Virus record (IMG/VR): IMGVR_UViG_3300044843_001063
Strand: one strand, 5' to 3'
Origin: an uncultured virus (IMG/VR IMGVR_UViG_3300044843_001063)
Taxonomy: Duplodnaviria > Heunggongvirae > Uroviricota > Caudoviricetes
DNA: 55,669 nucleotides
Notes under the pieces: generated by a model
Database searches by the model: none
Told to the model about the DNA's origin: nothing
The model's input: the letters and a program-made list of their open reading frames with translations, nothing else
Program-made: the position numbers and the translations under genes
Shown here: piece after piece, positions 23,260 to 43,849 of the stretch
How positions within the stretch are numbered: position 1 is the first letter of the stretch
How the letters are laid out: every line of letters starts with the position of its first letter

Positions 23260-26200
23260 ATGACTGACTTTGTCTCGTTACATAATCAGACGGATTTCTC
23301 TATTCTTGATTCTTTAATGTCCCCCAAAGCACTCTTTAATCGAGCCAAAGAATTGGGCCAATCTGCAGTCGCAGTCACAGATCACGGCACACTAGCCGGA
23401 GCCTGGGATTCCTTAAAAGCTTCCCGAGAGACTGGCGTTAAACTTATTATGGGCTGTGAAATCTACTTTGTAGAAGATGCCCAAAATATTACCGATAAAT
23501 TTAGACATTTAACCCTGTTAGCTAAAAATGCTAATGGTTATAAGAACTTACTCACTCTCAATAAAAAGGGCTTTGATCAGGGCTCTTTTATTGGCAAGAG
23601 AGTATATCCTATTGTCGATTGGAAGTTGTTAGAACAATGTTATAACGGGCTAATTTGTCTCACTGGTTGTGGCAATGGAATCATTAGCCAATTATTAATG
23701 AATAAAAAGTTTGATGAAGTAGAAACTACTGTCCTGAAACTGAAACAGTTATTTGGAGATAATTTAGGCATTGAAATTCTTCCCAATAATATGAAGCGGG
23801 GCTCTAATATTTATAATGATGAAATTGATCAACAATTTCTCAATATGAAGCTGATTAATTTGGGCAAAACACACAATATTAAAATTGTGCCCACCTGCAA
23901 TGCTCATTATGTGAAGAAAGAAGATCATGATATTCATGATGTTTTTCTAGCTATTGGTTCTCATCAACCAAAATATTCTAATTTTAGAATTAAATATAAT
24001 GTACCAGATTTTTATCTTAAATCTGCCGAAGAAGTTAAAAACTTCTTTGCTAGAAATCATGGCGAAGAATTAGCAGAAGAATGGTGTAATAATACGGTAT
24101 ATTTCGCCAATTTATGCGAAACTCCAGATTGGATTGACCCTAAATACTCTAATCCTTCTGGAAAAGAATTACCGATCTTCCCGGTCAAAGATGAGACAGA
24201 TTATCCTGAATTTGTACACTGGCTGGAACTTCAACCGCCAGAAGTTAAATTATTAGATATTGATAAACAATATTTGAGATTTAAATGTCAAGCCGCTTTT
24301 TCCTCTCGTATTAAGGATTTATCTCCTGATAATATGGAAAACTATCAACAGCGCTTGTTAGAAGAGCTAGATGTTATTGAATATCATGGCTTTTCTAGCT
24401 ACATGTTAATTGTGGCAGATTATATTAATTGGGCTCGTCGTAATGAGATTGCCGTAGGAGAAGGTCGAGGCTGCCTCACGGGTGATACCCAAGTCTTAAC
24501 TACTCAAGGATTTAAATTAATCAAAGACCTGTCTGTGACAGATACTGTGTTTAGTCATACTGGAAATATGAAAACTATTTCTAAATTATTTAAATTTGAC
24601 GTATCCAATGAAAAATTATTAAAGTTTAAAACACAGCAATCGTTTACGGACCTCACCATGACTTCGGATCATAAGGTGCTAATTGCTAAATCTCAAGATT
24701 TAGATAAATATTATTTTTACCCACCTAAAAAAGTTAAAGGTAAAATTAAAAGCTTTAATCCCCACTTGGAATGGGTGCCGGCTCACCAAATAAAAGTAGG
24801 AGATTATTTCTTTACTCCTAAATTAAATCGTTCCATTGACAACTTATCAGATATTGATCTTGCTCAATACAGCGACTCAATCATAGAAAATGATTTTATT
24901 GTCAGCAAAATTTACTTTACTAGCCCCCTCTCTTTACGCGCTTTACATAAAGTATCTCCAATCAGCTTTGAAAGTTTGAGAAAAATCAAAAATAACAAAC
25001 CTATTGCTGATACACAAATTAATTTACTTCAACAATACCTGTCTTCTACTGGGTCGTCTCTTCAAGATTTTGTCAATCATAAAAACTATAAATATAGCCG
25101 AATTCAAAGATTTATTAAAATTGATAATGATTTCGCTTATTTATTAGGCCGATGGATCGGTGATGGATCCTTTCATGGAAATAAAGGGATTTCTATCTGT
25201 TTTAATAGTAAAGATATCGTAGGTCGAGAAAAAATAAAATCCTATCTCACTAAACTAGGATTTTATGTCTGCCAAGAAAATAGAAAAAATAATAATACCT
25301 TATTAACTGTTTCTAATAAGGCTATGTATTCTTTATTTAAAGAATTATTTCCGAATTATCATAGTTCTCAAACTAAACATATGCCAAATATTTTTCGTTT
25401 ATTTTCTGATGAACTAATTCGTCATCTGTTATTAGGATTATTAGAATCAGATGGTTGTGTTAATAATTATGAAAAAATAAAAACTACTAGCCAAACTTTA
25501 GCTCTGCAAGTAAAAGAAGCGTTAAATTATTTATCACTCCCCTCCTCTATTTATACAGAAGAAAACCCGAAAAGATATCAAGTAGCTACCTCTACTGCTT
25601 TTACCATTGCTTTTAATGGAATTAAAACTAAACCTAATCCACATATCCACCGAACAAATCAAGGTTTTTATAGTAAAGTAGTTAGTATAGTGGAAACTAC
25701 TGCTGATTTTGTCTATGATTTTACTGTTCCAGATGATCATAGCTATCTTACTACCAGTGGAATAGTTCATAATAGTGTAGGAGGCTCTTTAATTGCTTTC
25801 TTACTAGGAATTCATCAAGCAGACCCGATTAAGTATGATCTGATTTTTGCTCGATTTCATAATAAGGAGAAGAGCAGCTTTCCGGATATAGACACCGACT
25901 TCGCCCCCTCAGGTCGCGAAAAAGTCCAAGCCTATGTTCGCCAAAAATATGGAGAGGAACACGTAGCCCACGTCTCTAACGTTAATACTATTACCCCCAA
26001 GGTGTATGTTCGCGATATTGCGAGAGCCTGCGAATTAGGCGGCTCCAGAGAAGAAGCCGTTCGGATTGGTAATGATGTTGCCGATTGCATTCCATCAGAT
26101 ATTCATTCCATTGATGATGCGTTAGCTAAAGTTCCATTATTTGCTGAATATTGTAAAAAATATCCAGAATTAGAAAAGTATAAAAGCATTTGCGGAAAAT

Positions 26201-27246
26201 ATCGAGCTTGGTCTACTCATGCCGGAGGAATTATTATTTCTGCCCGACCACTAACCGGATTAATTCCCCTGAGACGAGATAAAGATGGTGCCCTAGCTAT
26301 TGAATATGATAAAGATAAAGCAGAAGAAAACGGTCTAGTTAAAATGGATACTTTAGGTCTCTCCACTTTAGATATTATTGGAGAAACTTATCGTATTATT
26401 AAAGAACGCGGCAAAGAAGTGCCTCCCGATCAATTAGATTATGATGTTCATGATGCTCCTTCTTATGATTTGATTGCTAATGGCGATACCTTTTGCGTCT
26501 TTCAATTAGGGACTAGTGCTGGTACCGTAGACTTATGCCGTCGAATTAAACCAGATAGTATCAATGATTTAGCCAATATTAATGCCTTGGCCCGACCCTC
26601 CGCTCGTGAGATGAGAAATGATTTCATTAAAACTAAAAATGGAGGTAAGCCGGTTGCTTTATTGCATTCTAAATTAGCTCGAGCTTTTAATAGTACTTAT
26701 GGCTTCGGATTATATGAAGAATGTTTAATGTATCTGGCTCAAGATATTGCTGGTTGGAGCTTGCACTCAGCTGATAGATTAAGAAAATTAACTAAAGAAA
26801 AAGGTAAGAATCCTAAAAAGGTCCAACAATGGAAAGCAGAATTTATTGCTGATTCTGTTAAAATGGGCGTTCAAGAATTAATTGCTCAACGTATATGGAG
26901 TGAGGTAATTGAGCCTTTCCAGGGATATGGGTTCAACCGTTCCTTGTCCCTTTTTGAAATGATTGATATATATTCTAATGATGGTAGATTTATAAAGTCT
27001 AAACCTATAGGAGAAGTAAAACCAGGAGAATATGTGCGTTCACGAGATGAAGCTACTCAAAAAGAGATTTTTGTCGAAGTAAAGGCGAATCATGATCATG
27101 GTATTTTACCTTTAGTAGAGGTAGAATTAGAAACCGGCGAAACAGTCAAATGTACTATGGATCATAAGTTTAGAATTCAAGAAAATAAAGAGATGGTGCC
27201 ATTATGGCAAATCTTAAGAGACAATTTATCAATAGTGTTAGGTTAA
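23260..27246 (+). CDS. dnaE: DNA polymerase III alpha, N-terminal part (contains one cis intein, ends in split-intein N fragment)
   Basis: PHP domain (LHNQTDFS, AVTDHG), GRG|S, FPDIDTDF, HAGGII, LVKMDTLGL, YGFNR. Confidence 0.97.
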   Translation: MTDFVSLHNQTDFSILDSLMSPKALFNRAKELGQSAVAVTDHGTLAGAWDSLKASRETGVKLIMGCEIYFVEDAQNITDKFRHLTLLAKNANGYKNLLTLNKKGFDQGSFIGKRVYPIVDWKLLEQCYNGLICLTGCGNGIISQLLMNKKFDEVETTVLKLKQLFGDNLGIEILPNNMKRGSNIYNDEIDQQFLNMKLINLGKTHNIKIVPTCNAHYVKKEDHDIHDVFLAIGSHQPKYSNFRIKYNVPDFYLKSAEEVKNFFARNHGEELAEEWCNNTVYFANLCETPDWIDPKYSNPSGKELPIFPVKDETDYPEFVHWLELQPPEVKLLDIDKQYLRFKCQAAFSSRIKDLSPDNMENYQQRLLEELDVIEYHGFSSYMLIVADYINWARRNEIAVGEGRGCLTGDTQVLTTQGFKLIKDLSVTDTVFSHTGNMKTISKLFKFDVSNEKLLKFKTQQSFTDLTMTSDHKVLIAKSQDLDKYYFYPPKKVKGKIKSFNPHLEWVPAHQIKVGDYFFTPKLNRSIDNLSDIDLAQYSDSIIENDFIVSKIYFTSPLSLRALHKVSPISFESLRKIKNNKPIADTQINLLQQYLSSTGSSLQDFVNHKNYKYSRIQRFIKIDNDFAYLLGRWIGDGSFHGNKGISICFNSKDIVGREKIKSYLTKLGFYVCQENRKNNNTLLTVSNKAMYSLFKELFPNYHSSQTKHMPNIFRLFSDELIRHLLLGLLESDGCVNNYEKIKTTSQTLALQVKEALNYLSLPSSIYTEENPKRYQVATSTAFTIAFNGIKTKPNPHIHRTNQGFYSKVVSIVETTADFVYDFTVPDDHSYLTTSGIVHNSVGGSLIAFLLGIHQADPIKYDLIFARFHNKEKSSFPDIDTDFAPSGREKVQAYVRQKYGEEHVAHVSNVNTITPKVYVRDIARACELGGSREEAVRIGNDVADCIPSDIHSIDDALAKVPLFAEYCKKYPELEKYKSICGKYRAWSTHAGGIIISARPLTGLIPLRRDKDGALAIEYDKDKAEENGLVKMDTLGLSTLDIIGETYRIIKERGKEVPPDQLDYDVHDAPSYDLIANGDTFCVFQLGTSAGTVDLCRRIKPDSINDLANINALARPSAREMRNDFIKTKNGGKPVALLHSKLARAFNSTYGFGLYEECLMYLAQDIAGWSLHSADRLRKLTKEKGKNPKKVQQWKAEFIADSVKMGVQELIAQRIWSEVIEPFQGYGFNRSLSLFEMIDIYSNDGRFIKSKPIGEVKPGEYVRSRDEATQKEIFVEVKANHDHGILPLVEVELETGETVKCTMDHKFRIQENKEMVPLWQILRDNLSIVLG
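24472..25773 (+). mobile_element. 434-aa intein with LAGLIDADG endonuclease
   Basis: GRG|CLTGDT...TSDH...LLGRWIGDG...LLGLLESDG...VYDFTV..HSY....IVHN|SVGGSL. Confidence 0.95.
26941..27243 (+). mobile_element. Split intein N fragment (101 aa, begins with Ser)
   Basis: YGFNR|SLSL...HDHG...LETGETVKCTMDHKF (block B TxxH)...then a stop codon. Confidence 0.9.
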
Positions 27247-27247
27247 A

Positions 27248-28462
27248 ATGGGAAATGTCAGCAAACCAATAGATTATTATCTTCAAAAAATTCCAGAACC
27301 ATTTAGATCAAATGTTTCTTTAATGGAAGACTATCAAGGTAATAGAACTAAAATATCTTTTAATTTTTCATGTGGGTGTCAGATACAAGAACAATTTAAG
27401 GTTTTTCTTAAGAGGCCGCGATTTGATTTTTGCACCTCATGTGCTAAGAAAAATAGTCAAACTTATAGTTGTCAGTATTGCTGTCAAGAATTTACTGTGC
27501 AACGACATTTGGAAAATTGTCAGCAAAAATGCCAAAATAAATATGCACAACTCATTTTGGGTACAGATTATGTAATTTGCCAGATTTGTAATTTACATGC
27601 AAGAAGTCTAGGGGCACATGTTACTAAGAAGCACAATATATCTCATAAAGAATATCGTGAAAAATATGGAAGTTTAATTTGCACTGAGGCTTCTAAAAAT
27701 TATAAAGAAAGCGGTCAATATAATAGAGAGTGGATTACTCGTGCTCATTTAAATGGCACAGATTTAACCGAATATAGAAAAAAGTTATCTACAGCTGTTA
27801 AAGAGGCAATAATGTCAAATCCGGAAGAACGAAAAAGACGTTCCGAGTTAATGGCTACTATTAATAAAACAGAGAATATGCGGATTAAATCTTCTAAATC
27901 GGCCAAAATAACCTCTGCTAAACCAGAAATTTTAGAAAAAAGAACTAAGCAATTACAAAAATGGAGAGAAGAAAACCCAGAGTTATTTTATAACCAATGT
28001 ACCGCTCCAATGATTAAATCATTTCAAAGTAAACCAGAAAGAATATTATTTAATTATTTCTCGCAATTAAAACCTTTTAATTTTAAAAGAAACCAATTTA
28101 TAAAATCTAAGTATTTTACTAATTTTTCTAAGAAGAAACAAGTAGATATAATTGATTTGGATAATAGAATTTATATAGAGTTTGATGGTAAAGTTCATTT
28201 TAAGCCTATTTTTGGCGATTCTGTTCTCTTAAAAACTAAATTAAGAGATCAAGAATTAGAAAAAGTTATTACATCTAACAATTGGATTCTAATTAGAATT
28301 AGCTACGATCAATTTGTTTATACTACTAAAAATATTAATAAAATTAAACATGATGCATCTTATTTCAAACCAGAAAGCCTTCAACAAATAGAAGCAATAC
28401 TTAAATCAAAGCAACCAGGTGTTTACAAAATCGGAGAGGCATATAATAGCTCAAAATCATGA
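27248..28462 (+). CDS. Free-standing putative homing endonuclease (zinc fingers plus Vsr/DUF559-like PD-(D/E)XK domain) between the dnaE halves
   Basis: CQIC..H...H, SKPE, QVDII...IYIEFDGKVHF, RD......W.LIRI. Confidence 0.8.
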   Translation: MGNVSKPIDYYLQKIPEPFRSNVSLMEDYQGNRTKISFNFSCGCQIQEQFKVFLKRPRFDFCTSCAKKNSQTYSCQYCCQEFTVQRHLENCQQKCQNKYAQLILGTDYVICQICNLHARSLGAHVTKKHNISHKEYREKYGSLICTEASKNYKESGQYNREWITRAHLNGTDLTEYRKKLSTAVKEAIMSNPEERKRRSELMATINKTENMRIKSSKSAKITSAKPEILEKRTKQLQKWREENPELFYNQCTAPMIKSFQSKPERILFNYFSQLKPFNFKRNQFIKSKYFTNFSKKKQVDIIDLDNRIYIEFDGKVHFKPIFGDSVLLKTKLRDQELEKVITSNNWILIRISYDQFVYTTKNINKIKHDASYFKPESLQQIEAILKSKQPGVYKIGEAYNSSKS

Positions 28463-28569
28463 CTAATATTAAAACTATTAAATACATTGGCAATCATGCT
28501 ACGTGTGATTTGGAAGTAGATCATCCGGATCATCAATTCTACTTATCGAATGGAATGTTAACCTCAAAC
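28459..28569 (+). mobile_element. Split intein C fragment (37 aa)
   Basis: MTNIKTIKYIGNHATCDLEVDHPDHQFYLSNGMLTSN|S. Confidence 0.92.
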
Positions 28570-29697
28570 TCTCATGCGGTCTTATATTCCATGACCAGTT
28601 ATAAGACTTCTTATTTAAAGGCCCATTATCCGGTTGAGTTTTTATTGGCTAATTTAATGGCCGAAGTAAAATCTAATGCTCCAGATGCAGGGAGTAATAT
28701 CAATAAAATTAAGAAAGAATTAAAAGCACACAAGGTTAAGATTTCTCCTCCGGATATTAATTCGTCTAATTTGACTTATACTATTTCTGAAGGTAATAAA
28801 TTATTAACCGGTTTAGATTCTTTAAAATTCGTGGGAGACGATGCGATTAAAGATATTATTCAAAAACGTCCTTTCAAAAGCTTTTTTGATTTCATGCATC
28901 GAGTGGATTCCAAAAAAGTCAGAGCTAATAGTATTCAAGCCTTAGCGGCAGCTGGTGCCTTAGAAAAATTTGGTATCCCTAGAAAGCTTATTTTCTTATA
29001 TTGTTCAGATTTTAGAAAGAAATTACAAGTTTGGTTAAAGAAACATGACCCTCAACAAGAAGAGTTTATTTATCCTTGGCCTTCGGAACCGGATTGGTCA
29101 TTGTCAGAACAATATGCGTTAGAGCAATATTATTTAGGAGAATCTTTTATTTGTAAAGCGCCTGAGGCGTATGGTAAGTTTTTCAAAAGCCCTCATCATG
29201 TTATTTATGAAATTAAAAAAGCTAACAACAAAACCAAGATTTCGCCCATTAAAGGAATAGTTAAAGATTTCTTCGAATTCAAAGTTAAAAAAGAGACAAG
29301 TAGTTATTATGGTCAATCTATGGTGAAAGCTATTATTGAAGATAAAGAAGGAGACCAATGCTCTTGTACTATTTTTCCAGATCGTTGGCAATTAATACAG
29401 AAACGATTAAAAGAATTAAATAGCAAAGCTATATTTGATGTTGGCTTGGCTTTAAGTTTTTCTGGCAGTGTTAATACTTATGAAGATGAAGTTGGCATTA
29501 TTTTAGAAGAATTATTAGATATTTCTCCAATTCCAGCTTTACCTACTGATTTAAAAGCCAAGCGAGTCAATTTAAAGGAAGCTAAATTAAAAAATAAAGA
29601 GCCGGTGACTGAGGCGAAAAATGTTTTGGATGAAATTGAAGATTTATTATATGATGAGGGTCTAATTGATTTAGATACCGATCCGGATAACGATTAA
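28459..29697 (+). CDS. dnaE: DNA polymerase III alpha, C-terminal part, preceded by the split-intein C fragment
   Basis: N|SHAVLYS..SY..YLKAHYPVEF, PPDINSS, HhH, OB fold. Confidence 0.95.
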   Translation: MTNIKTIKYIGNHATCDLEVDHPDHQFYLSNGMLTSNSHAVLYSMTSYKTSYLKAHYPVEFLLANLMAEVKSNAPDAGSNINKIKKELKAHKVKISPPDINSSNLTYTISEGNKLLTGLDSLKFVGDDAIKDIIQKRPFKSFFDFMHRVDSKKVRANSIQALAAAGALEKFGIPRKLIFLYCSDFRKKLQVWLKKHDPQQEEFIYPWPSEPDWSLSEQYALEQYYLGESFICKAPEAYGKFFKSPHHVIYEIKKANNKTKISPIKGIVKDFFEFKVKKETSSYYGQSMVKAIIEDKEGDQCSCTIFPDRWQLIQKRLKELNSKAIFDVGLALSFSGSVNTYEDEVGIILEELLDISPIPALPTDLKAKRVNLKEAKLKNKEPVTEAKNVLDEIEDLLYDEGLIDLDTDPDND

Positions 29698-29774
29698 TTA
29701 TAATAATTGCGCGGTGATATATTACTCTAGTAATCCTAGAATAATTAGAGCGATCGTTGACCTAAGGAAAAATA

Positions 29775-30578
29775 ATGAAATGTATATCGTGTGAAATTGA
29801 AATCAATCCTAAATGGGCGCATGCTATTGATGTTAATATTTGCCCCTTTTGTGGGCAACATATTATGGAGGAGCATTTAAAAAACTTATTTGGCTCATTG
29901 CGTCAAACCATGGAAAGTTTAGTTGCTTATCCAGAAGCATTAAATGACTGGATGTTATCTAATTACTCGTATATTAAAACGGATTCGGAAGACATCATTA
30001 AATATGTACCTAAAGATCTAATTAAAAACAGTCATTATCATGCGGCTTCTGATCGAAAAGACTCTCAAAAATTCACGGTTAAAGTGGCCACCGAGCAAGG
30101 AGAGGAAGAGGTCATGGTAGAGAAGATTCAGCCAGAAGAAAAAACCAATGACTTTTTTAAGAGAGCGGAAGTAATTAAGCATAATGTGTTGCCGGCCGAA
30201 AAAACTCAGCATTTAAAAGCTTTAGCTCAACAAATTAAAAAGGCAGGATCTCAAGGACTAACGACTAGCAATCACAACATGGTATTATCTCCAGAATTAA
30301 TGGAAAATGCTGATCCAGAGGCCATTGCAGAATATCAGCAATTAGTTTCTAATAATATGATTGGGTCATCCATTACTTCTAATGATTTAGATAGTGATGA
30401 TTTGCCGGGAGGCGATTTTATTTTGCAAGCTAATTTAATGGCAGCGGCTACCAAAAATGGTAATAATAGAGATGGTGCTAATGCTAAAGATTTAGCCGCT
30501 TTGCAAAAAATGCAAGCTGGATTATCAGAATCCAGAAAAAATTTGCTAACTGGCGCGAAAGGGTCTTTTCGTCGATAA
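29775..30578 (+). CDS. Hypothetical protein with N-terminal zinc ribbon
   Basis: CISC...CPFCG; AAGGA SD. Confidence 0.7.
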   Translation: MKCISCEIEINPKWAHAIDVNICPFCGQHIMEEHLKNLFGSLRQTMESLVAYPEALNDWMLSNYSYIKTDSEDIIKYVPKDLIKNSHYHAASDRKDSQKFTVKVATEQGEEEVMVEKIQPEEKTNDFFKRAEVIKHNVLPAEKTQHLKALAQQIKKAGSQGLTTSNHNMVLSPELMENADPEAIAEYQQLVSNNMIGSSITSNDLDSDDLPGGDFILQANLMAAATKNGNNRDGANAKDLAALQKMQAGLSESRKNLLTGAKGSFRR

Positions 30579-30585
30579 TAGGTGA

Positions 30586-30954
30586 ATGATGTCAATTCAT
30601 ATTGTAAATAATAAAAAGTTAGAGATGACCGATGATGAATGGGCCATGTATCAAAAGATTGTAAAATCTTATACTACTGCTACTAATAAAGGCGAAGATC
30701 TATTTATAGATCTATTTGAAACAGATGATAATGGAATTATCATTTTTCTCAAACCTCCGTCTCGATTTAGAACCTCTTTTGAGGTATTCTTATTTTTGAT
30801 GGCTTTATTTCAGCATCAACATTTAAGATTAATGTATCAACAAGTAGGTGAAATCTCTCAGCAAATGAAAAATAAAATTCAAGAATTAAATCAATTGCAG
30901 GAAAAATTAGCTAAGAATCTACCTCATTCGTTAGAATTAGATTCTAGAAATTAA
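30586..30954 (+). CDS. Hypothetical protein
   Basis: ORF with AGGTGA SD. Confidence 0.7.
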   Translation: MMSIHIVNNKKLEMTDDEWAMYQKIVKSYTTATNKGEDLFIDLFETDDNGIIIFLKPPSRFRTSFEVFLFLMALFQHQHLRLMYQQVGEISQQMKNKIQELNQLQEKLAKNLPHSLELDSRN

Positions 30955-30963
30955 GGGTTACAT

Positions 30964-31467
30964 ATGAGCCATACAGTAAGACTTGGTGATTTTTTAGGGA
31001 CAGAATTAGAAGAAGATTTTATTAATTTTGATTTTACCGAAATACAGAAAGTATTAACACATTTACAAGAGACAGATGCTTTGGACTTAGTTCATGCCGA
31101 GTTTTTACAACAGCAAGCGTTGCGAGGAGCGGATATTGTTTCTGAATATCTCGGCAAGATTATTAAAACAGTTGGATATTTAGAGGCTAAAGTTAATAGA
31201 ACTAAAAATAAAGTCTCTTTAGAATATAAAGCTCCGGATGGAGAGCGAACTACTTTAGACATGAAAAAATGGGCCGGAGAGTCTTCTCTAGAGGTAGAAG
31301 AGGTTCAGATTAAATTAGCCAAAGCTAAAGCTTCTAAAATTGTATTGGAAAAAAAATATGATATTCTGATTAGAAGTCATCATCACTATAAAGATATTGC
31401 TCAGGGATTAAGAAGAACTGTCTTAGGATATAATTCTACTACTAAAATTCCCGAAGGATATGAGTAG
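30964..31467 (+). CDS. Helical protein, possibly a UvsY-like recombination mediator
   Basis: Size, long amphipathic helices and position upstream of recA; inference only. Confidence 0.4.
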   Translation: MSHTVRLGDFLGTELEEDFINFDFTEIQKVLTHLQETDALDLVHAEFLQQQALRGADIVSEYLGKIIKTVGYLEAKVNRTKNKVSLEYKAPDGERTTLDMKKWAGESSLEVEEVQIKLAKAKASKIVLEKKYDILIRSHHHYKDIAQGLRRTVLGYNSTTKIPEGYE

Positions 31468-33355
31468 AATTGCTAAATTAACTGATGCTATCTTAGATGC
31501 TCGACTCCCATCTTCCATTAAAAGAATAGATTCAGTCATTACTGCTAAAACAAAAATTACTTTTCAATGCGCACTATGTGATTATCAGTGGCTAGCTAAA
31601 CCTGATAATATCTTGCATGGCAAAGGCTGCCCAGCCTGTGCCAAGTCGCTCCCTTTATCTAATGAAATTGTAGACCAACGTTTACTAGGTCGGCCGACGC
31701 AAAGAGTCGGAGACTATATTAATAGTCGAACTAAAATCTGGTTTAGTTGCAAAAAGTGTCATTATCAATGGTTAACCACCCCACATACTATCTTAATTGA
31801 TCAATGTGATTGCCCCAAATGTCACAAGTTAAGAAAAAACGAAACACTAATTAATGATCTATTGATTAACTTAAATATTAAGTTTGAAACTCAAAAAGAT
31901 ATTCGGGCTTTTAATAATCAAGAAGTTAACAAATATTATGTTGATTTTTATGTGCCAGAGTTGCGTTTAATTATTGAATATAATGGTCATCAGCATTATG
32001 CTCCCGTTCGTTTTGGTAATAGATCGCTAGCTAAGTCAACTCAAGCCTTTCAAAAACAACAAATTAGAGATAATTATCTTCGGTCTTTTTGCTTTAATAA
32101 TAACCTGAATTTATTAGAAATTGATGGCCGACGGTATTATTCAAATAAATTAACCACGTATTTAACAAAATTACTAACTGATATAGAAGGAAGCATGAAA
32201 AATTACGATTCTTTTTTTAAAACATACTCTGACAACGAAGAACAATTAGACTTTAAAATGGCGCATGAAACGGTAGGAGAAAAGCTACCCGTTATTTCAA
32301 CGGGATCATTTATTTTAGATGATGCTTTATCTTCTGGAGGATTGCCAGAAGGCAGACTCATTCAATACTATGGCGCTCCGGGTAGTGGTAAAACCTTATT
32401 AGCCATGTTAGCTATTAAGGAAGCTCAGCAACAAAATCCTTCAGCAGACCAGGTATTTATTGATGCGGAACAGACGTTTTCGCCTACTTGGGCAGAATCT
32501 CTAGGATTAGATACTTCTCGTATTATTTTGATTCAAGGCGATACGGCAGTCAATGGTCGTAAATGTTTTGAAATGTTATTAGGGGTACCGAAAGAAGATG
32601 TGAGAACGCATACCTTAAAAGGTCAGGCTAAAGATGGTTTGTTAGATAAGGTGGCGAATAAGGAGTTTGATATTAATTTGATTGTGCTGGACTCGTTGGG
32701 CTCTATTATTCCCCCCGGAGAAGACATCTCCGCCGTTGGCAAAATGAACATCTCCCTCCTAGCCCGCTTCTTAACCACCACCTTCCGCAAGCTATCTTTA
32801 GCTCTTTCTAAAACCAATTGCCCATTAATTATCATTAATCATAAGAAAACCAGCATGGATCCTTATGGTTCCGATCATACTTTTTCTGGTGGCAATACTT
32901 ATGCTCACTTCTTGAGTGCTAACGTCTATTTTGAACCTGTCAATCGGGCTGATGCTAAAATTTTAGATGAAAAAGAAAACAAAATTGGGCAAACCATTCG
33001 AGCTACGATCGAAAAGTCTAAATTTGGTCCTTGGCCACGCAAGTGTGAATTTAAAGTAGATTTTGGTATTGGAGTCATTGATAAGCATGAAGAAATTGCC
33101 ACCTTAGCTTTAGATTATAATGTAGTGCAAAAACCCACTAGTGTGACTCATGAATATGGAGAGCGAAAATGGGTTGGTTTTGCTAAGTTTTGCGAAGCTA
33201 TTCAATCTGATGGTGAGTTAGCGGCAGAATTATTAGCTAAGATTAATCATGCTCGAGATTCTAAGTTAGAAACTAAGAGATTAGAGCAAGAAGCTAAAAA
33301 AGCCGAAAGTTTAGAGAAGGCTGGAAAATCGAAAAAAGGTAAAAAAGATGACTGA
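31460..33355 (+). CDS. In-frame fusion: two zinc-ribbon repeats plus a Vsr/PD-(D/E)XK-like endonuclease (aa 1-245), then RecA
   Basis: CALC..W...GCPAC repeated twice, YYVDFY..IIEYNGHQHY, RD; no stop before the RecA Met at 32195. Confidence 0.85.
   Translation: MSRIAKLTDAILDARLPSSIKRIDSVITAKTKITFQCALCDYQWLAKPDNILHGKGCPACAKSLPLSNEIVDQRLLGRPTQRVGDYINSRTKIWFSCKKCHYQWLTTPHTILIDQCDCPKCHKLRKNETLINDLLINLNIKFETQKDIRAFNNQEVNKYYVDFYVPELRLIIEYNGHQHYAPVRFGNRSLAKSTQAFQKQQIRDNYLRSFCFNNNLNLLEIDGRRYYSNKLTTYLTKLLTDIEGSMKNYDSFFKTYSDNEEQLDFKMAHETVGEKLPVISTGSFILDDALSSGGLPEGRLIQYYGAPGSGKTLLAMLAIKEAQQQNPSADQVFIDAEQTFSPTWAESLGLDTSRIILIQGDTAVNGRKCFEMLLGVPKEDVRTHTLKGQAKDGLLDKVANKEFDINLIVLDSLGSIIPPGEDISAVGKMNISLLARFLTTTFRKLSLALSKTNCPLIIINHKKTSMDPYGSDHTFSGGNTYAHFLSANVYFEPVNRADAKILDEKENKIGQTIRATIEKSKFGPWPRKCEFKVDFGIGVIDKHEEIATLALDYNVVQKPTSVTHEYGERKWVGFAKFCEAIQSDGELAAELLAKINHARDSKLETKRLEQEAKKAESLEKAGKSKKGKKDD
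32195..33355 (+). CDS. recA: RecA recombinase (probable internal start)
   Basis: GAAGGA SD; ISTGS..LD.AL..GGLP.GR, GAPGSGKT, FIDAE, IVLDSLG, IIINH, GG, KSKF. Confidence 0.92.
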   Translation: MKNYDSFFKTYSDNEEQLDFKMAHETVGEKLPVISTGSFILDDALSSGGLPEGRLIQYYGAPGSGKTLLAMLAIKEAQQQNPSADQVFIDAEQTFSPTWAESLGLDTSRIILIQGDTAVNGRKCFEMLLGVPKEDVRTHTLKGQAKDGLLDKVANKEFDINLIVLDSLGSIIPPGEDISAVGKMNISLLARFLTTTFRKLSLALSKTNCPLIIINHKKTSMDPYGSDHTFSGGNTYAHFLSANVYFEPVNRADAKILDEKENKIGQTIRATIEKSKFGPWPRKCEFKVDFGIGVIDKHEEIATLALDYNVVQKPTSVTHEYGERKWVGFAKFCEAIQSDGELAAELLAKINHARDSKLETKRLEQEAKKAESLEKAGKSKKGKKDD

Positions 33356-33689
33356 TAAAGATTTTATGATTGGAACGGTAGGTTTGCCAACCATTAACAA
33401 TATCACTAAAAAGCCATGTTATCTAGTTGAATTATTAGATAACATGGGTAAACAGCCTAAAAAAATATACTTTTTATCATTAGATAAGCCAGAAACTTTG
33501 AATGGGTTTATTCAAGTAAAAGGAATTTATTCTTCTTTATTAGAAGAAGAGTTAGTGAAAAAATTTGGTGAAATTCTTTCAGTCACGCCGAAAGAGCAAA
33601 TTTTAGAATTAATGATACCCTGGCATCGGGTATATAGTATTCGAAGCTTGGTATTTAATGCCAATAAGCCGTCTAGTTTGATTAAATAA
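33348..33689 (+). CDS. Hypothetical protein
   Basis: ORF overlapping the recA stop. Confidence 0.65.
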   Translation: MTDKDFMIGTVGLPTINNITKKPCYLVELLDNMGKQPKKIYFLSLDKPETLNGFIQVKGIYSSLLEEELVKKFGEILSVTPKEQILELMIPWHRVYSIRSLVFNANKPSSLIK

Positions 33690-33733
33690 TTTAATCGTTT
33701 GTGTATTGAAAATAGTAAAAGAAAGGGAATAAA

Positions 33734-34018
33734 ATGACATTTAATAGTAATAAAAGTTCGAAAAAATCCACCTCAGAAGAGATTGTTTTTAATCGAGTTA
33801 AGACTTTAGTTACCCGTAAGAAAAATTGGCTAGGAACGATGACTGAGTTAATGTTTGCCATTAATGGTAGCGCCTTAGTGACCAGAAATCCTGCTAACTT
33901 AAGAGTAGTGTTAAATAAAGTTGTAAATCGTTTACGTAATCAAAGAATTAGTGTGAAATTTTTCCGAGAAAAAGATCGTACTAGAACTCGATTTGTACAG
34001 TTTACCATGAATAAATGA
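33734..34018 (+). CDS. Small basic protein, possible winged-helix DNA binder
   Basis: W.GT.TEL...P..L...L......LR...I.V.F.R pattern. Confidence 0.5.
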   Translation: MTFNSNKSSKKSTSEEIVFNRVKTLVTRKKNWLGTMTELMFAINGSALVTRNPANLRVVLNKVVNRLRNQRISVKFFREKDRTRTRFVQFTMNK

Positions 34019-34110
34019 TAGTAGTCACACGATACTAAAATAATTGTTAATATAAAAGTACATAGTGTACAATAGATAAATAACAGTAGATAAAAAAGTA
34101 GGAGATACAT

Positions 34111-34821
34111 ATGACAACCTTTGGTGAAATTAGCTGGAATGATGACGTCTTTGGCGGCGATAATAAAAAAAATGTCAATAGTAAAGATTTATTCCTTCGA
34201 CTAGAGGAAGGATCTAACGAAATTAGATTAATTACTCAACCATTTCAATATTTAGTACACAAATATAAGAAAGAAGGAGATCCTGGATTTGGACAGAAGA
34301 TTTCTTGTTCAGCTATCCATGGCAGCTGTCCCCTTTGTGAATTAGGTGATAAGGCCAAACCCAGATGGTTTCTGGGAGTAATTTCCAGAAAAACTGGAAC
34401 TTATAAAATCTTAGATATTTCTTTTGCTGTCTTTTCTCAAATTCGTAAGTTAGCGCGCAATACTCAACGATGGGGAGATCCGACCAAATATGATATTGAT
34501 ATTGTGGTAGATAAAAATGGCGGAGCAACTGGATATTATTCAGTGCAACCTATTTCTAAAGAGGCTTTGTCGGCGGCAGATCAACAAATTAAAGACAATG
34601 TTGATTTAGATGATTTGAAACGCCGAGCCACTCCATTAATGCCAGATGCCGTTCAAAAGAGAATGGATAAAATCAATGGCGTTGGTGAATTTGCCACCGC
34701 AGGAGCGCCTGCGATGAAAAAGGCGGGAGCTAAACCGGTAGCTAAACCAGCAGTCGTCAGCATGACCGATGACGAAGATATGGATGATGCATTTCCGGCC
34801 TATAATAGTGATGCAGAATGA
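34111..34821 (+). CDS. gp32-like single-stranded DNA-binding protein
   Basis: FLRLEEG.NEIRLI, H...C......CPLC zinc site, DP..YDI.I, acidic C-terminal tail; located between recA and ruvC. Confidence 0.75.
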   Translation: MTTFGEISWNDDVFGGDNKKNVNSKDLFLRLEEGSNEIRLITQPFQYLVHKYKKEGDPGFGQKISCSAIHGSCPLCELGDKAKPRWFLGVISRKTGTYKILDISFAVFSQIRKLARNTQRWGDPTKYDIDIVVDKNGGATGYYSVQPISKEALSAADQQIKDNVDLDDLKRRATPLMPDAVQKRMDKINGVGEFATAGAPAMKKAGAKPVAKPAVVSMTDDEDMDDAFPAYNSDAE

Positions 34822-34843
34822 CCTAAAAAATAGGTAGTAATTT

Positions 34844-34873
34844 AAAAGGGCAAGTAGTAACTTGCCCTTTTTT
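34844..34873 (+). terminator. Rho-independent terminator
   Basis: AAAAGGGCAAGT-AGTA-ACTTGCCCTTTTTT. Confidence 0.9.
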
Positions 34874-34893
34874 ATTGGATAAAAGTGAGAAAT

Positions 34894-35460
34894 ATGACTC
34901 GGATTTTAGGGATAGATTGTTCTTCTACGACCATTGGTTATGGAGTGTTAGATATTGATGCTAATAATAACATTAGTTTAGTAGCGGTCTCCTATCTTAA
35001 ACCGAATAAAAAAGGCTCGATTATTGAAAGAATTGTTTCGACTAGAGATGAGATTCAAAAAATAATGAATAAATACCAGCCCGATTTAATTGGCATTGAA
35101 GATATTATACAATTTATGCAAGGCAAGAGTACGGCGAAAACGATTATTACATTGACTACTTTTAATCGTATGATTGGGCTGTGCGCCTTCGATTTTTTAA
35201 AAAAGAGCCCGAGCTTATTTAATGTAATGACCATCCGTCACGGATTAAAATTAAATAAAACGCTGCCAAAAAAAGAAGATATTCCGGAGCTTGTGGCCCA
35301 CCATTTAAAGATTACATTTCCTTACGAGCGCTCGGCCAAAGGTAAAAAAAAGGGCGCCATCAAAATTGAAAATTTTGACATGGCTGACGGTTTGGCGGTA
35401 GCGCTATATTATGCATTTATAGTAACTGGAAAAATTAAAAGAAAAAATAAGGTATTATGA
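34894..35460 (+). CDS. ruvC: Holliday junction resolvase RuvC
   Basis: ILGIDCS..TIGYGVL, PDLIGIE, DMADGLAVA. Confidence 0.88.
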   Translation: MTRILGIDCSSTTIGYGVLDIDANNNISLVAVSYLKPNKKGSIIERIVSTRDEIQKIMNKYQPDLIGIEDIIQFMQGKSTAKTIITLTTFNRMIGLCAFDFLKKSPSLFNVMTIRHGLKLNKTLPKKEDIPELVAHHLKITFPYERSAKGKKKGAIKIENFDMADGLAVALYYAFIVTGKIKRKNKVL

Positions 35461-36401
35461 AATTAAGTGAAGCTTATAATATTCTGGGAGTACAGCCCAA
35501 TGCCGACCCTGAAGCCGTGAAGAAGCAATATAAGAAATTAACTCGAGAATTTCATCCGGACATTAACAAGGAAGCCGGAGCCGAGGAAAAGTTTAAAAAA
35601 ATAAATGAAGCTTACCAAGTGGTCACCTCGGGCAAAGAAGAGGGCGCGCAAATTCCTTGGCAAGGCTTTAATCCATTTGCGAATATGGATCCTTTTGGAA
35701 TGAATCAACAAGTTATTCATCCGGCAGATCCTGTATCTTTGCATATTAATATTTCTTTTAAAGATTCTATTTTAGGATGCAAGAAAGAACTAAAGTTTAA
35801 TAGAAAAATTAAATGTACTGAGTGTCAAGGTAATGGTAAGACTGTCATCCCCAGTAATTGTACGGAATGTCAAGGTAAAGGGAGAAAAGTAGTAACTCAA
35901 GGTCATATGACTTTTGTTACTACTTGTAATAAATGTTATGGCAAAGTAGAGACTAAAAATTGTGTGAAATGTAATTCACAAGGAACTTTGACCACTGATA
36001 CGGCTATTAGTGTTAATGTTCCAGGCGGTATCCAAAATGGAAATATCTTAAGATTAAGTCATATGGGTAATTTCATTACTACTTTTGGCCCATTGGATCA
36101 ATATAGTGATGCTCATTTATCGGTGTCAGTAGAAGCCGATCCGGAGTTATCATTACATGGGACAGATGTAGTTTGTACAGTTTCTATTCCATTAGTCCAG
36201 GCTATTACTGGCACTACTAAAACAGTTAGAACTATTTTAGGATCTCAAGAGGTAATGGTGCCGGCTAAATCTAAACATAAAGATGAAATCATTCTTACTA
36301 AATTAGGGGTCAATGGAGTCGGCAATCAAAAGGTAGTATTACATGTAGACTATCCAGAATTCACTGATAGTATGATTCAAGCTTTACAGGAGGTTGTGTG
36401 A
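35457..36401 (+). CDS. dnaJ: DnaJ co-chaperone
   Basis: J domain with HPD, four CxxCxGxG-type repeats, C-terminal substrate-binding domain. Confidence 0.93.
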   Translation: MKLSEAYNILGVQPNADPEAVKKQYKKLTREFHPDINKEAGAEEKFKKINEAYQVVTSGKEEGAQIPWQGFNPFANMDPFGMNQQVIHPADPVSLHINISFKDSILGCKKELKFNRKIKCTECQGNGKTVIPSNCTECQGKGRKVVTQGHMTFVTTCNKCYGKVETKNCVKCNSQGTLTTDTAISVNVPGGIQNGNILRLSHMGNFITTFGPLDQYSDAHLSVSVEADPELSLHGTDVVCTVSIPLVQAITGTTKTVRTILGSQEVMVPAKSKHKDEIILTKLGVNGVGNQKVVLHVDYPEFTDSMIQALQEVV

Positions 36402-36724
36402 AAGTTTCTGCGATGTGTCCTGTGTGTCAAAAAGCGCAAGAGCCTTATTTGGATCCGCGTAGTAATAAAGTATATTGTTCTTTATGCGATGCAGAAATTA
36501 AAAATATTTCACATTTTGCTAAGATTCAAATGCAAACGACTAAACAAATAAGAATTCCGACTAAGGGAATTTCTGTTAAATGCAATAAATGTAAAAATGA
36601 TAGTCGGCCTCAAATAGTAGAGGCTAAAGTAGTGTGTGGAACTTGTGCCGGACCCTTAGATAATTTAACTCCTATTTTTAAAGAAATGTTAAAAGAGCTC
36701 TTGAAAAAAGAAGAGAATGATTAA
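36398..36724 (+). CDS. Double zinc-ribbon protein
   Basis: CPVC..CSLC, CNKC..CGTC; GGAGG SD. Confidence 0.7.
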   Translation: MKVSAMCPVCQKAQEPYLDPRSNKVYCSLCDAEIKNISHFAKIQMQTTKQIRIPTKGISVKCNKCKNDSRPQIVEAKVVCGTCAGPLDNLTPIFKEMLKELLKKEEND

Positions 36725-36728
36725 TTCT

Positions 36729-37325
36729 ATGCAAGAAATTAAGATAGATTATTTTGGCACTAAACATTATTATTGGAATGGTCAGCGACATCGAGAAGAT
36801 GGCCCTGCCGTAGAATATGCTGATGGAACTAAGATGTGGTTTATTCATGGTTTGAAGCATCGAGAAGATAGACCAGCTGTAGAGCATGCTAATGGAGATA
36901 AAGAATGGTGGCTTCATGGCCAAAGACATCGAGTAGGTCATCCAGCTTATGAGGGTGCTGATGGATCTAAACAATGGTGGCTTCATGGAAAACGGCATCG
37001 AGAAGATGGCCCGGCTCTAGAATGTGTTAATGGAACTAAAGAGTGGCGGATTCATGATCAACTCCATCGAGCAGATGGCCCAGCCCATGAAGGCGCTGAT
37101 GGAATGAAAAAATGGTGTCTTCATGGTCAATTCCATCGAGAAGATGGTCCTGCATTAGAACATGCTGATGGATCCAAATTTTGGTTTATTCATGGCCAAC
37201 AACATAGAGAAAATGGCCCTGCTATAGAATACTCTAATGGAGCAAAACAATTTTGGTTACAAAATTCTTTAATTCTTTCAGAAGAAGAATATTGGAGAAT
37301 ACTTAAGTTGAAAGCATTATGGTGA
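36729..37325 (+). CDS. HREDGPA-repeat protein 1 (7 repeats)
   Basis: MQEIK start, 23-aa units, EEEYWRILKLKALW end. Confidence 0.9.
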   Translation: MQEIKIDYFGTKHYYWNGQRHREDGPAVEYADGTKMWFIHGLKHREDRPAVEHANGDKEWWLHGQRHRVGHPAYEGADGSKQWWLHGKRHREDGPALECVNGTKEWRIHDQLHRADGPAHEGADGMKKWCLHGQFHREDGPALEHADGSKFWFIHGQQHRENGPAIEYSNGAKQFWLQNSLILSEEEYWRILKLKALW

Positions 37326-37328
37326 AAT

Positions 37329-37577
37329 ATGCAAGAAATTAAAAATTATAAAGATGGCACTTCCAAATATTATTGGAATGGCCGATTACATCGAGAAGAT
37401 GGTCCAGCGATAGAATGGTCTCATGGCACTAAAGAATGGTATCTTCATGGAAAATGTCATCGAGAAGATGGTCCAGCAATAGAGTGGACTAATGGAGATA
37501 AATATTGGTACCTTCAAGGTAAACAATATTCGGAGCAAGAATATTGGAGACGAGTTAAACTAAAAGCTTTATGGTGA
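37329..37577 (+). CDS. HREDGPA-repeat protein 2 (2 repeats)
   Basis: Same cap-repeat-tail architecture. Confidence 0.9.
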   Translation: MQEIKNYKDGTSKYYWNGRLHREDGPAIEWSHGTKEWYLHGKCHREDGPAIEWTNGDKYWYLQGKQYSEQEYWRRVKLKALW

Positions 37578-37581
37578 AGTT

Positions 37582-38034
37582 ATGCAAAAAATTAAAGAAG
37601 ATCACTGGGGAAAATATTATTATTGGAATGGTCTCTTCCATCGAGAAGATGGTCCAGCAGCAGAATTCTACAATGGAGATAAAGATTGGTATTATTATGG
37701 TCAACGTCATCGAGAAAATGGACCAGCCAGAGAATTTGCTCATGGCCATAAAGAATGGTGGCTTCATGGTCAACGTCATCGGGAAGATGGTCCAGCCAGA
37801 GAATATTATGATGGGTCTAAAGAATGGTATCTTCATGGAAAATGTCATCGAGAAGATGGTCCAGCGGCAGAATATTCTAATGGAGACAAATTATGGTATT
37901 TTAAAGATCAGCTTCATCGAGAAAATGGTCCAGCTATAGAATGTGAAGATGGTGCTAAAAGCTGGTATCTTCAAGATAAAGAATATTCAGAAGAAGAATA
38001 TTGGAGAGTAGTGAAATTAAAAGCTTTATGGTAA
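37582..38034 (+). CDS. HREDGPA-repeat protein 3 (5 repeats)
   Basis: Same architecture. Confidence 0.9.
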   Translation: MQKIKEDHWGKYYYWNGLFHREDGPAAEFYNGDKDWYYYGQRHRENGPAREFAHGHKEWWLHGQRHREDGPAREYYDGSKEWYLHGKCHREDGPAAEYSNGDKLWYFKDQLHRENGPAIECEDGAKSWYLQDKEYSEEEYWRVVKLKALW

Positions 38035-38043
38035 ATAGTTATT

Positions 38044-38802
38044 ATGTTTAATAAAATTATTGATGCTTGCAAATATTTGCTGACTAGCTTTCCAGAAGCT
38101 CAAACTAGCAAAGAATATCTAGATTCAAGAATCTCCGCTAGTAGTCAAGAACTATTTGATTTTGGATTTTTCCCCAATTTAGATAATTTGCCCGTATTAA
38201 TTGATTTGGTCGGAGAAGCTGAACTAATTAATAGTAATTTGCTGTATTCCAAAATTATTGAAGATTCTGGAGGGATTAGGTCTCTTAATTTTTGTTATTT
38301 TGAACATTATCCTATTATTATGCCGTTTAAAGATCCATATGGGGAAATAGTTGGTATTGTGGGTCGAACCTTATTAAGCGAATCAGAATATAAAAACTTA
38401 GGTATACCTAAATACAAGAATACTAAGAACTTTAAAAAAGGCAATTTTTTATTCGGCTTATATGAAAATAAAGAACATATTATTAAAAATAATAGCGTTT
38501 ATTTGGTAGAGGGTCAATTTGATGTAATTAAAGCAAGAGAAAAAGGCTTTAATAATATGGTAGCCTTAGGGACTTCTAGTATGACAGATTATCAATTCTC
38601 TGTTTTAAGTCGTTATACCGATAATATATTTTTATTATTGGATAATGATGAGGCCGGAGAAAAGGGTCGTAAATTTATTACCCATAAATATGGCAAATAT
38701 GCAAATATTCAAAACTTTTACTTGCCTGATCAGTACAAGGATGTAGATGATTATTTTTCATTATCTCAAGAAGATACCTTATCGTTTGCAGTTAAAGTGT
38801 GA
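38044..38802 (+). CDS. dnaG: DnaG primase catalytic core (Toprim) without a zinc-binding domain
   Basis: IIMPF.D..G.IVG..GR, PKYKNT, FKKG..LFGL, LVEGQFDV, VALGT, LDNDEAG, KDVDD. Confidence 0.9.
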   Translation: MFNKIIDACKYLLTSFPEAQTSKEYLDSRISASSQELFDFGFFPNLDNLPVLIDLVGEAELINSNLLYSKIIEDSGGIRSLNFCYFEHYPIIMPFKDPYGEIVGIVGRTLLSESEYKNLGIPKYKNTKNFKKGNFLFGLYENKEHIIKNNSVYLVEGQFDVIKAREKGFNNMVALGTSSMTDYQFSVLSRYTDNIFLLLDNDEAGEKGRKFITHKYGKYANIQNFYLPDQYKDVDDYFSLSQEDTLSFAVKV

Positions 38803-38814
38803 AATGGTTAACTT

Positions 38815-39333
38815 ATGCAAAAAATATTAAAAAGAAAAGGAATTATAGAATATATTTCTTACGGCAAACGTCATCGAGAAGATGGCCCGGCAGCAATATG
38901 GTTTAATGGAGATAAATCCTGGTATCTTCATGGTCATCTTCATCGAATAGATGGCCCGGCATTAGAATGGACTAATGGACATCAAGAATGGTGGCTTCAT
39001 GATCAACGCCATCGAGACGATGGGCCTGCAATTGAGTATTTAAATGGAGATAAAGAATGGTGGATTCATGGAAAGCGCCATCGAGAAGGCGCTCCAGCCA
39101 TAGAAAGTTTCAGTGAGAAACGATGGTATCTTCATGGTCATCTTCATCGAGAAGATGGTCCAGCGATAGAGTTGCCTAATGGACGTAAAGAGTGGCATCT
39201 TCATGATCAATGCCATCGAGAAGATGGTCCGGCAATAGAAGATGCTTATGGAAATAAATGGTGGTACTTTCAAGGTAAAAATTATACAGAAAAAGAATAT
39301 TGGAGAGTACTTAAATTGAAAGCTTTATGGTAA
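38815..39333 (+). CDS. HREDGPA-repeat protein 4 (6 repeats)
   Basis: Same architecture; one unit is 22 aa. Confidence 0.9.
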   Translation: MQKILKRKGIIEYISYGKRHREDGPAAIWFNGDKSWYLHGHLHRIDGPALEWTNGHQEWWLHDQRHRDDGPAIEYLNGDKEWWIHGKRHREGAPAIESFSEKRWYLHGHLHREDGPAIELPNGRKEWHLHDQCHREDGPAIEDAYGNKWWYFQGKNYTEKEYWRVLKLKALW

Positions 39334-39336
39334 AGT

Positions 39337-39723
39337 ATGCAAGAAATTAAAAAAGAGATATGTGGCGCTAAAAAATATTATTGGAAGTATCAGCTACATC
39401 GAGAAGATGGGCCAGCCATAGAATGGCATGATGGATCTAAAGAATGGTGGATTCATGGTCAACTTCATCGAGAAGATGGTCCGGCAGTAGAATATACTAA
39501 TGGAGAGAAATTTTGGTATCTTTATGGTAAATGCCATCGAGAAGATGGACCTGCCGTAGAATGGTTTAATGGAAATAAATATTGGTTTTTTCATGGTCAA
39601 CGTCATCGAGAAGATGGCCCAGCTATAGAGCATTCTGATGGATTGAAAGCTTTTTATCTTCAAGGAAAAGACTATTCAGAAGAAGAATATTGGCGATTAG
39701 TTAAATTAAAAGGTTTGTGGTAA
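39337..39723 (+). CDS. HREDGPA-repeat protein 5 (4 repeats)
   Basis: Same architecture. Confidence 0.9.
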   Translation: MQEIKKEICGAKKYYWKYQLHREDGPAIEWHDGSKEWWIHGQLHREDGPAVEYTNGEKFWYLYGKCHREDGPAVEWFNGNKYWFFHGQRHREDGPAIEHSDGLKAFYLQGKDYSEEEYWRLVKLKGLW

Positions 39724-39727
39724 CACA

Positions 39728-40114: not shown

Positions 40115-40118
40115 TAAT

Positions 40119-40505: not shown

Positions 40506-40508
40506 AGT

Positions 40509-40829: not shown

Positions 40830-40842
40830 CATCCAAATTTCT

Positions 40843-41667: not shown

Positions 41668-41672
41668 ATGAG

Positions 41673-42119: not shown

Positions 42120-42125
42120 GTCACT

Positions 42126-43809: not shown

Positions 43810-43849
43810 TATCAATATTTGTTTATCTATAATAGGCGTATTTTATTTA

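Follow-up and report, generated by a model that had tools for sequence, protein, structure and literature searches.

We propose that abrupt changes from G-ending to C-ending codons (hereafter, G-to-C flips, read along the plus strand) in the genome of a large AT-rich phage from lake-water metagenomes are directional substitution scars, written at recurrent nuclease breaks by error-prone, C-biased repair synthesis. We give this reading a probability of roughly 0.55, and we consider it very probable that, whatever the mechanism, the flips mark nuclease breaks in this phage; all of the evidence comes from one near-clonal phage population. The starting point was a 55,669-nt stretch of the phage genome (IMG/VR IMGVR_UViG_3300044843_001063; hereafter, the window), in which a sequence-only reading had interpreted a single flip in recA as the scar of repeated homing by a nuclease. 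The recurrence of the flips, their polarity and their clustering at nucleases in this phage agree with that interpretation, while the substitution spectrum and the generality it expected do not.

The recA flip is as sharp as originally described. Ten of the 20 codons at 32642–32701 end in G and two in C, where the amino acids and the codon usage of the window predict 2.03 G-ending codons and where 12 codons could end in G. Eleven of the following 20 codons (32702–32761) end in C against 2.5 expected by the same calculation, and the sole G-ending codon among them is ATG. The exact tail probabilities are 7 × 10−7 for the G arm and 2 × 10−6 for the C arm, and the C run is longer than first noted (19 of 26 codons at 32711–32788; 3.35 expected). 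The flip ranks top among the 15,065 scanned positions of the window, with a min(zG, zC) of 6.41 compared to a maximum of 4.86 in 300 within-gene synonymous shuffles of the window. Its G-ending arm occupies 32639–32701 and its C-ending arm 32711–32791, both on the plus strand, and the best change point, 32699 (95% interval 32690–32714), falls at LDSL/GS in the conserved IVLDSLG, 509 nt after the fused nuclease domain described below, where the sequence-only reading had placed it at about 500 nt. We take IVLDS to be the Walker B motif of RecA. None of 56 distinct recA relatives (those below 50% identity, those with fewer than 15 codons per side and duplicates having been dropped) reaches a minimum z of 2, the highest value being 0.6, so the flip is not a conserved feature of recA. 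Neither the flip nor the in-frame fusion is an assembly error, because a contig (X5) from a sequencing run that was not flagged as a possible source of the window spans 31784–33288 without a single difference.

The flip lies in a 631-aa ORF (31460–33355, plus strand) in which an N-terminal nuclease is in frame with RecA, as seen in the ORF translation, the Pfam matches (the RecA family, and DUF559 with E = 2.7 × 10−7) and the X5 contig. The N-terminal part (31460–32190, plus strand) comprises two zinc-finger repeats (DUF4379) and a Vsr-like (DUF559) nuclease domain, assigned from Pfam, alignment and Foldseek, and is the candidate cutter of the recA site. Residues E128, D162, E173, G176 and H179 are invariant across 11 aligned nuclease sequences, and position 175 is N here and in all seven close homologs. 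A structure model of the nuclease (pLDDT 83.9) matched Vsr (1cw0; E = 1.6 × 10−3, probability 1.00) and I-Bth0305I (3r3p; E = 8.6 × 10−3, probability 0.99) in Foldseek, which returned no match with E < 10−3, and searches of PDB sequences with the nuclease gave no nuclease match. Judged from the model, the domain has a predicted Vsr-like catalytic fold, and we think it likely that this nuclease cuts within 32690–32714. A purine-rich stretch followed by an ATG (M246) at 32186–32197 (plus strand) matches the recA start of nuclease-free relatives, the ATG of RecA itself, at 32195, being the start position in those relatives; RecA may therefore also be produced separately by initiation at M246. No RecA domain was found among the listed Pfam families of 11 homologs of the first 240 residues (proteins of 347–1105 aa searched), and a Vsr-type gene lies upstream of recA in none of the 42 orthologs for which the upstream gene is known. 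In this patchy presence beside a conserved gene, the recA nuclease resembles free-standing homing endonucleases. In three relatives, the slot upstream of recA holds an unrelated HNH-type gene (L013:916–1704, L016:2177–2887 and L212); the L013 gene ends with a duplicated C-terminus of its upstream neighbor, and the L013 recA also carries an intein.

Overlapping contigs of the same phage extended the window by 30 kb to 85,642 nt in total, with contig L230 identical across the overlap and contig G014 showing one mismatch in 3,719 nt; no sequence was found that extended the genome leftward. Differences between these contigs and the window are almost confined to short repeat genes, mainly to a cluster of short genes with a repeated HREDGPA motif at 36717–40829, which is interrupted by a primase and includes a spot near 40650 with 11 changes in ~40 nt. 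Reads over 24000–43900 fell mostly in short repeat genes, and no nuclease-free allele was present among the matches listed. The best cultured matches to the phage recA are only ~30% identical. Other genes recognized by Pfam include a ribosomal protein S21 homolog (5053–5415), a TnpB/Cas12f-like gene (7885–9030), peptide deformylase (10394–10828), trigger factor (20626–21873) and DnaJ (35457–36401).

We scanned these sequences with 20 codons per side, a threshold of z ≥ 3 and a radius of 700 nt around nucleases, the radius having been picked after the window was seen. Across the 85.6 kb there were 11 G-to-C peaks versus one C-to-G peak; at z ≥ 3.5, the window alone held five G-to-C flips (in recA, dnaE, ruvC, a sigma-like gene and ORF 53625) and no C-to-G flip, where shuffles predict 0.25. 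A nuclease gene itself contains one G-to-C peak (55854, z 3.05), which we did not include when measuring distances. Nine of the remaining ten are 9–509 nt from a nuclease gene or intein, giving P = 2 × 10−5 given that 24% of non-nuclease positions are within 700 nt of a nuclease. The dnaE flip (25825–25947; change point 25891, at FPDI/DTDF) follows an intein by 118 nt, the sigma-like flip (41976–42095; change point 42015) precedes an HNH gene (42126–42965) by 111 nt, and the flip in ORF 53625–54518 (53927–54071; change point 54000) lies 417 nt after a nuclease gene (52474–53583), all on the plus strand. The weaker ruvC flip (35125–35245, plus strand; change point 35182) is the only one far from a nuclease gene (2992 nt); an HNH gene lies downstream of ruvC in one of 58 orthologs, and the orphan flip could possibly derive from a lost nuclease.

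The extension enlarged this set. The window ends within another nuclease gene (55470–55669, plus strand) of the same type as 52474–53583, and in the overlapping contig L230 this gene is followed by the terminase gene, which has a G-to-C flip at KGRQV/GAT (z 6.0/6.4), 203 nt after the nuclease. Before G014 was scanned, we set down the prediction that new flips would lie beside nuclease sequence. All four new flips did, with no C-to-G flip and 0.1 expected; the chance of four out of four is ~0.003 by a hand calculation, 23% of the extension positions being near nucleases. Two of these flips are in the portal gene, one at each outer junction of its tandem LAGLIDADG inteins. The third is in a gene with a free-standing LAGLIDADG neighbor 130 nt away, and the fourth is in the major head (capsid) gene, 246 nt from an HNH gene that was recognized only after the flip and was later confirmed by PHROGs (E = 1.9 × 10−18). 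The capsid gene is C-rich in relatives too, with a right-side z ≥ 3 in three of six. A LAGLIDADG-like ORF, recognized by eye, runs off the contig at the G014 end (L273:1–950, minus strand).

Orthologs of the flipped genes have no such feature: it was found in none of 37 dnaE, 60 ruvC, 17 ORF-53625, 22 terL and 18 portal sequences, and 2 of 68 sigma sequences reached z ≥ 2 with none at z ≥ 3. An upstream nuclease was likewise seen in none of 22 ORF-53625 orthologs and none of 21 terL orthologs. Within this phage, the change-point scan that had been put forward as a check on the recA observation thus came out in its favor, the flips having one polarity, clustering at nuclease genes, being absent from orthologs and, in two cases, sitting on intein junctions.

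Half of the nuclease intervals in this phage (8 of 16) had no two-sided flip nearby, namely those at 9151, 18304, 19789, 27248, 40843, 42931 and 67701 and a truncated one at the end. Two of these eight have a patch of C-ending codons alone downstream. One such patch (41720–41780, plus strand; z about 9) is at the start of the sigma-like gene, directly after a GIY-YIG gene (40843–41667), and another, at about 17000–17150 of L273, is in the gene after an HNH gene (17283–17942, minus strand). C-only patches after GIY-YIG and HNH genes are possibly one-sided scars of nicks or of single-end repair. Further patches occur inside GIY-YIG genes, with the partner arm absent in each case: a C patch at 40980–41037, in the gene at 40843, and a G patch at 43662–43800, at the end of the gene at 42931. 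In topA, far from nuclease genes, a weak G-to-C signal (z 2.1/4.0) and the only C-to-G peak (3572, z 3.02) lie together at 3509–3572; a Vsr-type gene is upstream of topA in one of five orthologs (L286).

Inteins allow the flips to be calibrated, because the nucleases that they carry cleave DNA at the point of insertion or close to it. For the two portal flips, the change point falls 9 nt from one outer junction of the tandem inteins and 24 nt from the other; the 95% intervals include the first junction and miss the second by 3 nt. Codons within the inteins are biased as well, with C ending 10 out of 20 past the 5′ junction (2.6 expected) and G ending 13 out of 20 ahead of the 3′ junction (2.5 expected). 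The two LAGLIDADG inteins are arranged back to back at one portal site (L274:3014–7084, minus strand; G014), their inner junction (YAN/SYD) is without a flip, and a relative (L284) has one intein at the same site. No flip was found at the terminase mini-intein, which is without a nuclease domain. In dnaE (23260–29697), there is a split intein with a free-standing nuclease gene (27248–28462) between its two halves, in addition to a LAGLIDADG intein. The LAGLIDADG intein (24472–25773, plus strand) shows a weak C excess at its 5′ junction (z 2.6) and none at its 3′ junction, and the split-intein junctions show no flip.

The bias inside the portal inteins bears on two alternatives. In the first, heteroduplexes around the break would be resolved with strand bias, such that the strand whose 3′ end is at the break always keeps its G and standing variants are fixed, a GRINS-like drive acting on cut sites. 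Break-centered conversion of this kind predicts the same positions and polarity as error-prone synthesis and needs fewer new mutations, and third-position skews have been tied to gene conversion in GRINS (PMC8256042). We nevertheless consider it unlikely, because the arms inside the inteins are as biased as those in the exteins and an intein-free recipient forms no heteroduplex there, because conversion would require repeated exchange between differing intein-bearing alleles in a population that is near-clonal, and because tolerance of G-T wobble pairs predicts T over C in the left arms, where C stands at 15% versus a background of 16%. In the second alternative, silent changes are selected because they shield the phage's own allele from cutting, and, for an enzyme with two-fold symmetry, a G to the left of the site counts the same as a C to its right. 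The location of flips in conserved motifs beside nuclease genes suits such escape, as does the example of I-Bth0305I, a dimer that recognizes a pseudopalindromic site with a footprint of ~60 bp (PMC3239194). Escape nonetheless appears improbable, given that Vsr-like, LAGLIDADG and HNH neighbors all go with one polarity, that the arms span ~150 nt, that the bias within inteins has no protective value and that nuclease-bearing relatives are without flips. With no heteroduplex to resolve in an intein-free recipient and nothing for escape to protect, the intein-internal bias is most simply read as new mutation arising while DNA is synthesized from the broken end, which favors error-prone repair synthesis over heteroduplex conversion or a hairpin.

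The substitution spectrum departs from the one originally expected. Four-fold sites carry G at 61 of 94 positions in left arms (background 0.14) and C at 77 of 117 in right arms (background 0.17), while each of the other three bases falls to ~0.4 of its background; the high G and C fractions derive partly from the choice of sites, whereas the even loss of the other bases does not. The A-to-G changes on the left and T-to-C changes on the right proposed by the sequence-only reading are therefore present as a subset of a broader pattern in which any base is replaced by G in left arms and by C in right arms. Expressed by strand, the new strand gains C on both sides. The substitutions showed no dependence on neighboring bases and no C-to-T signal, and amino-acid changes in the arms are few and of unclear direction. 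Left arms extend about 20–25 codons and right arms ~30 codons. Three mutational processes were rejected as sources of this spectrum: cytosine deamination on single-stranded tails and G-T wobble tolerance, since C is not lost at two-fold pyrimidine sites on the left (8/54, background 0.16) and G is not lost at two-fold purine sites on the right (11/39, background 0.19); and misalignment of the Pol IV type, since no context effect was seen. Such misalignment predicts dependence on a neighboring G or C.

The G-then-C order also argues against co-conversion during homing as the source of patches from a relative richer in GC, an idea we weighed together with local replication start or stop sites unrelated to nucleases. 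Co-conversion near cut sites is established (PMC2988022), and the GC content of the relatives ranges from 0.27 to 0.455. A GC-rich donor, however, would raise both G and C on both sides, as opposed to the G then C observed in 11 of 12 peaks, and none of the relatives has such codons at the flip sites; no common motif was visible at the ten change points. We regard both versions as improbable.

A selected RNA or DNA hairpin, in which the G-rich left arm pairs with the C-rich right arm, has some footing at recA. The RNA fold there has a z of −2.23 (8 of 200 shuffles were as good), a perfect 9-bp inverted repeat (32627–32635 and 32794–32802) is centered on 32714.5, and the register at that center, with 44 Watson–Crick pairs out of 95, is the best of 161 registers (mean about 25). 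Folding of recA was, however, no better than in shuffles of third bases within arms (p = 0.147 for RNA and 0.133 for DNA), and p rose to 0.89 and 0.51 without the outer stem; three other flips gave p values of 0.13–0.79, and in-register pairing was present in none of four other flips examined. The outer stem arises largely from K-E/D and S-L codons and is partly present in flip-free relatives, and the window contains 74 9-mer inverted repeats at this spacing. A selected hairpin is thus highly improbable. A conserved RNA structure in the coding sequence was also rejected, with neither stability beyond composition nor conservation found.

Relatives of this phage do not share the scar. Because a GC-rich region dominated a scan of G003 that relied on the codon usage of the whole genome, later scans were normalized per gene. 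Pooled across relatives, the 31,966 positions close to nucleases contained no G-to-C peak at z ≥ 3; the 140 nuclease ORFs concerned were detected by in-house profiles that will have missed some nucleases. Rates near to and far from nucleases were equal, and at lower thresholds C-to-G peaks were as frequent as G-to-C peaks. No G-to-C excess was seen in G013 (452 kb, 33 nuclease ORFs), genome-wide in G005 (360 of 361 kb, 20 nuclease ORFs) or in the 280 of 448 kb scanned of G004 (18 nuclease ORFs). The strongest G004 peak, a primase flip at about 258173 (z 3.5/4.6), is 722 nt from an HNH gene, just beyond the radius. The 5′ junction of the G005 portal intein gives a weak hint (z 3.7/2.2) of a second lineage with flips, which the genome-wide scan of G005 did not bear out; the weak terL peak of G008 is not next to a nuclease. 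As a further weak hint, scores are higher in sigma genes that are followed by an HNH gene than in those that are not (7 versus 50; p = 0.005, uncorrected for kinship or multiple tests), and an upstream GIY-YIG gene has no effect on the sigma score (18 versus 52; p = 0.12). Ten loci with distant homologs of the nuclease, one of them from this phage, had no flips among the matches listed.

Cultured phages gave a similar picture. In a scan of positions at least 20 codons inside ORFs, and thus outside intron junctions, the numbers of G-to-C and C-to-G peaks at z ≥ 3 were 1 and 1 in T4, 0 and 0 in each of T5, SPO1 and 0305phi8-36, 2 and 5 in S-PM2, and 3 and 3 in CP220. T4 had no peak even at z ≥ 2.5 in 1,809 positions near six detected GIY-YIG genes. 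The wider proposal that cut sites can be read from sequence in general accordingly fails, there being no G-to-C excess in relatives with 140 nuclease ORFs, in T4 or in the five other cultured phages, and the enrichment near nucleases that it anticipated does not extend beyond this phage, near and far rates being equal in the relatives. The scar is lineage-specific and is no general mark of homing.

Error-prone repair synthesis could produce the recA flip as follows. The Vsr-like nuclease from the 5′ part of the ORF would cut near 32700, either in nuclease-free recA alleles during homing or, now and then, in its own allele. After resection of the 5′ ends, the 3′ ends would enter a sister genome and serve as primers for synthesis, and the gaps left by resection would be filled in. 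If the first ~60–90 nt on each side were made by a low-fidelity process that places C in the new strand regardless of template, then, because the new DNA would be the plus strand to the right of the break and the minus strand to its left, silent sites would over many rounds come to carry C to the right of the break and G to its left, while selection would allow almost no change in the protein. Where the break is at an intein, synthesis of the intein-bearing product could be primed from either end, which would leave a flip at each junction and a bias into the intein. Replacement at ~60% of silent sites would need very many mutagenic events per site, beyond a few homing sweeps. Strand-asymmetric mutation around breaks occurs in eukaryotes, and we know of no phage polymerase with a context-free C rule. 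We tentatively suggest that an undescribed step of break repair, belonging to the phage or to its host, inserts C along the first 60–90 nt of the new strand whatever the template and so leaves a readable map of cut sites in which break position and strand are known; the same step may also produce GRINS skews and G-recoded conversion tracts.

If this reading is correct, the target sites of several uncharacterized nucleases are predicted to ~25 nt from sequence alone: the Walker B motif of recA, the Walker A motif of the terminase, the PDID motif of dnaE, the sigma-like gene, the capsid gene and two genes without known function; outside the window, the predicted sites include L274:9257 and positions 11022 and 2097 of L273. 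The flips have limited value as a general tool, since relatives and model phages lack the scar. The flips would nevertheless be a natural record of strand-specific mutagenesis at defined breaks, and they make two questions testable: whether homing is in itself a source of mutation, a point that PMC5378118 does not settle, and on which strand G accumulates in recombination-linked skews, whose cause is given as unknown in PMC8256042.

In searches of the open-licence literature, we found no description of a mirror G-to-C scar at homing sites. The nearest precedent is the gradients of SNP density beside the homing sites of mobile mitochondrial introns, explained there by repair that is mutagenic or by co-conversion (Repar and Warnecke 2017, PMC5378118). 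Both those gradients and the flips are sequence footprints adjoining homing sites, but that study concerns exon polymorphism density, with no mention of spectrum or transversions found in it, whereas the flips are fixed, strand-polarized and mirror-symmetric and reach inside the element. GRINS resemble the flips in showing a recombination-linked skew that is strongest at third positions and takes opposite signs on one strand; they are duplicated tracts of >500 bp with >80% identity to another region and correlated GC and TA skews, of unknown cause (PMC8256042). The flips, by contrast, are single-copy, ~150 nt long, skewed mainly in GC and anchored on nuclease or intein sites. A blastn search of the 85.6 kb with 301 nt around each of ten flips found no second copy, and pooled GC and TA skews were 0.35 and 0.01 on the left and −0.17 and −0.13 on the right (genome, 0.09 and −0.08), those of recA alone being 0.68 and 0.22 on the left and −0.43 and 0.00 on the right. 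The flips share the third-position bias of GRINS (~65% G or C at four-fold sites), but as short, single-copy tracts with little TA skew they fall outside the GRINS definition.

Intronless homing by the Seg and Mob nucleases of T4 is organized much as we suppose here, with a nuclease gene beside a conserved gene, a distant cut (inferred in our case) and repair by recombination (PMC2988022), and differs in that T4 has no such scar near its GIY-YIG genes. The closest counterpart of the recA nuclease is I-Bth0305I, an intron-encoded enzyme with NUMOD-type binding that cuts phage recA at L2-loop codons (PMC3239194). The nuclease described here shares with I-Bth0305I and the EDxHD nucleases a Vsr-like catalytic fold and a phage recA target, which in our case is predicted, and differs from I-Bth0305I in lying upstream of recA and in frame with it, in carrying zinc-finger repeats and in having its predicted site at the Walker B codons.
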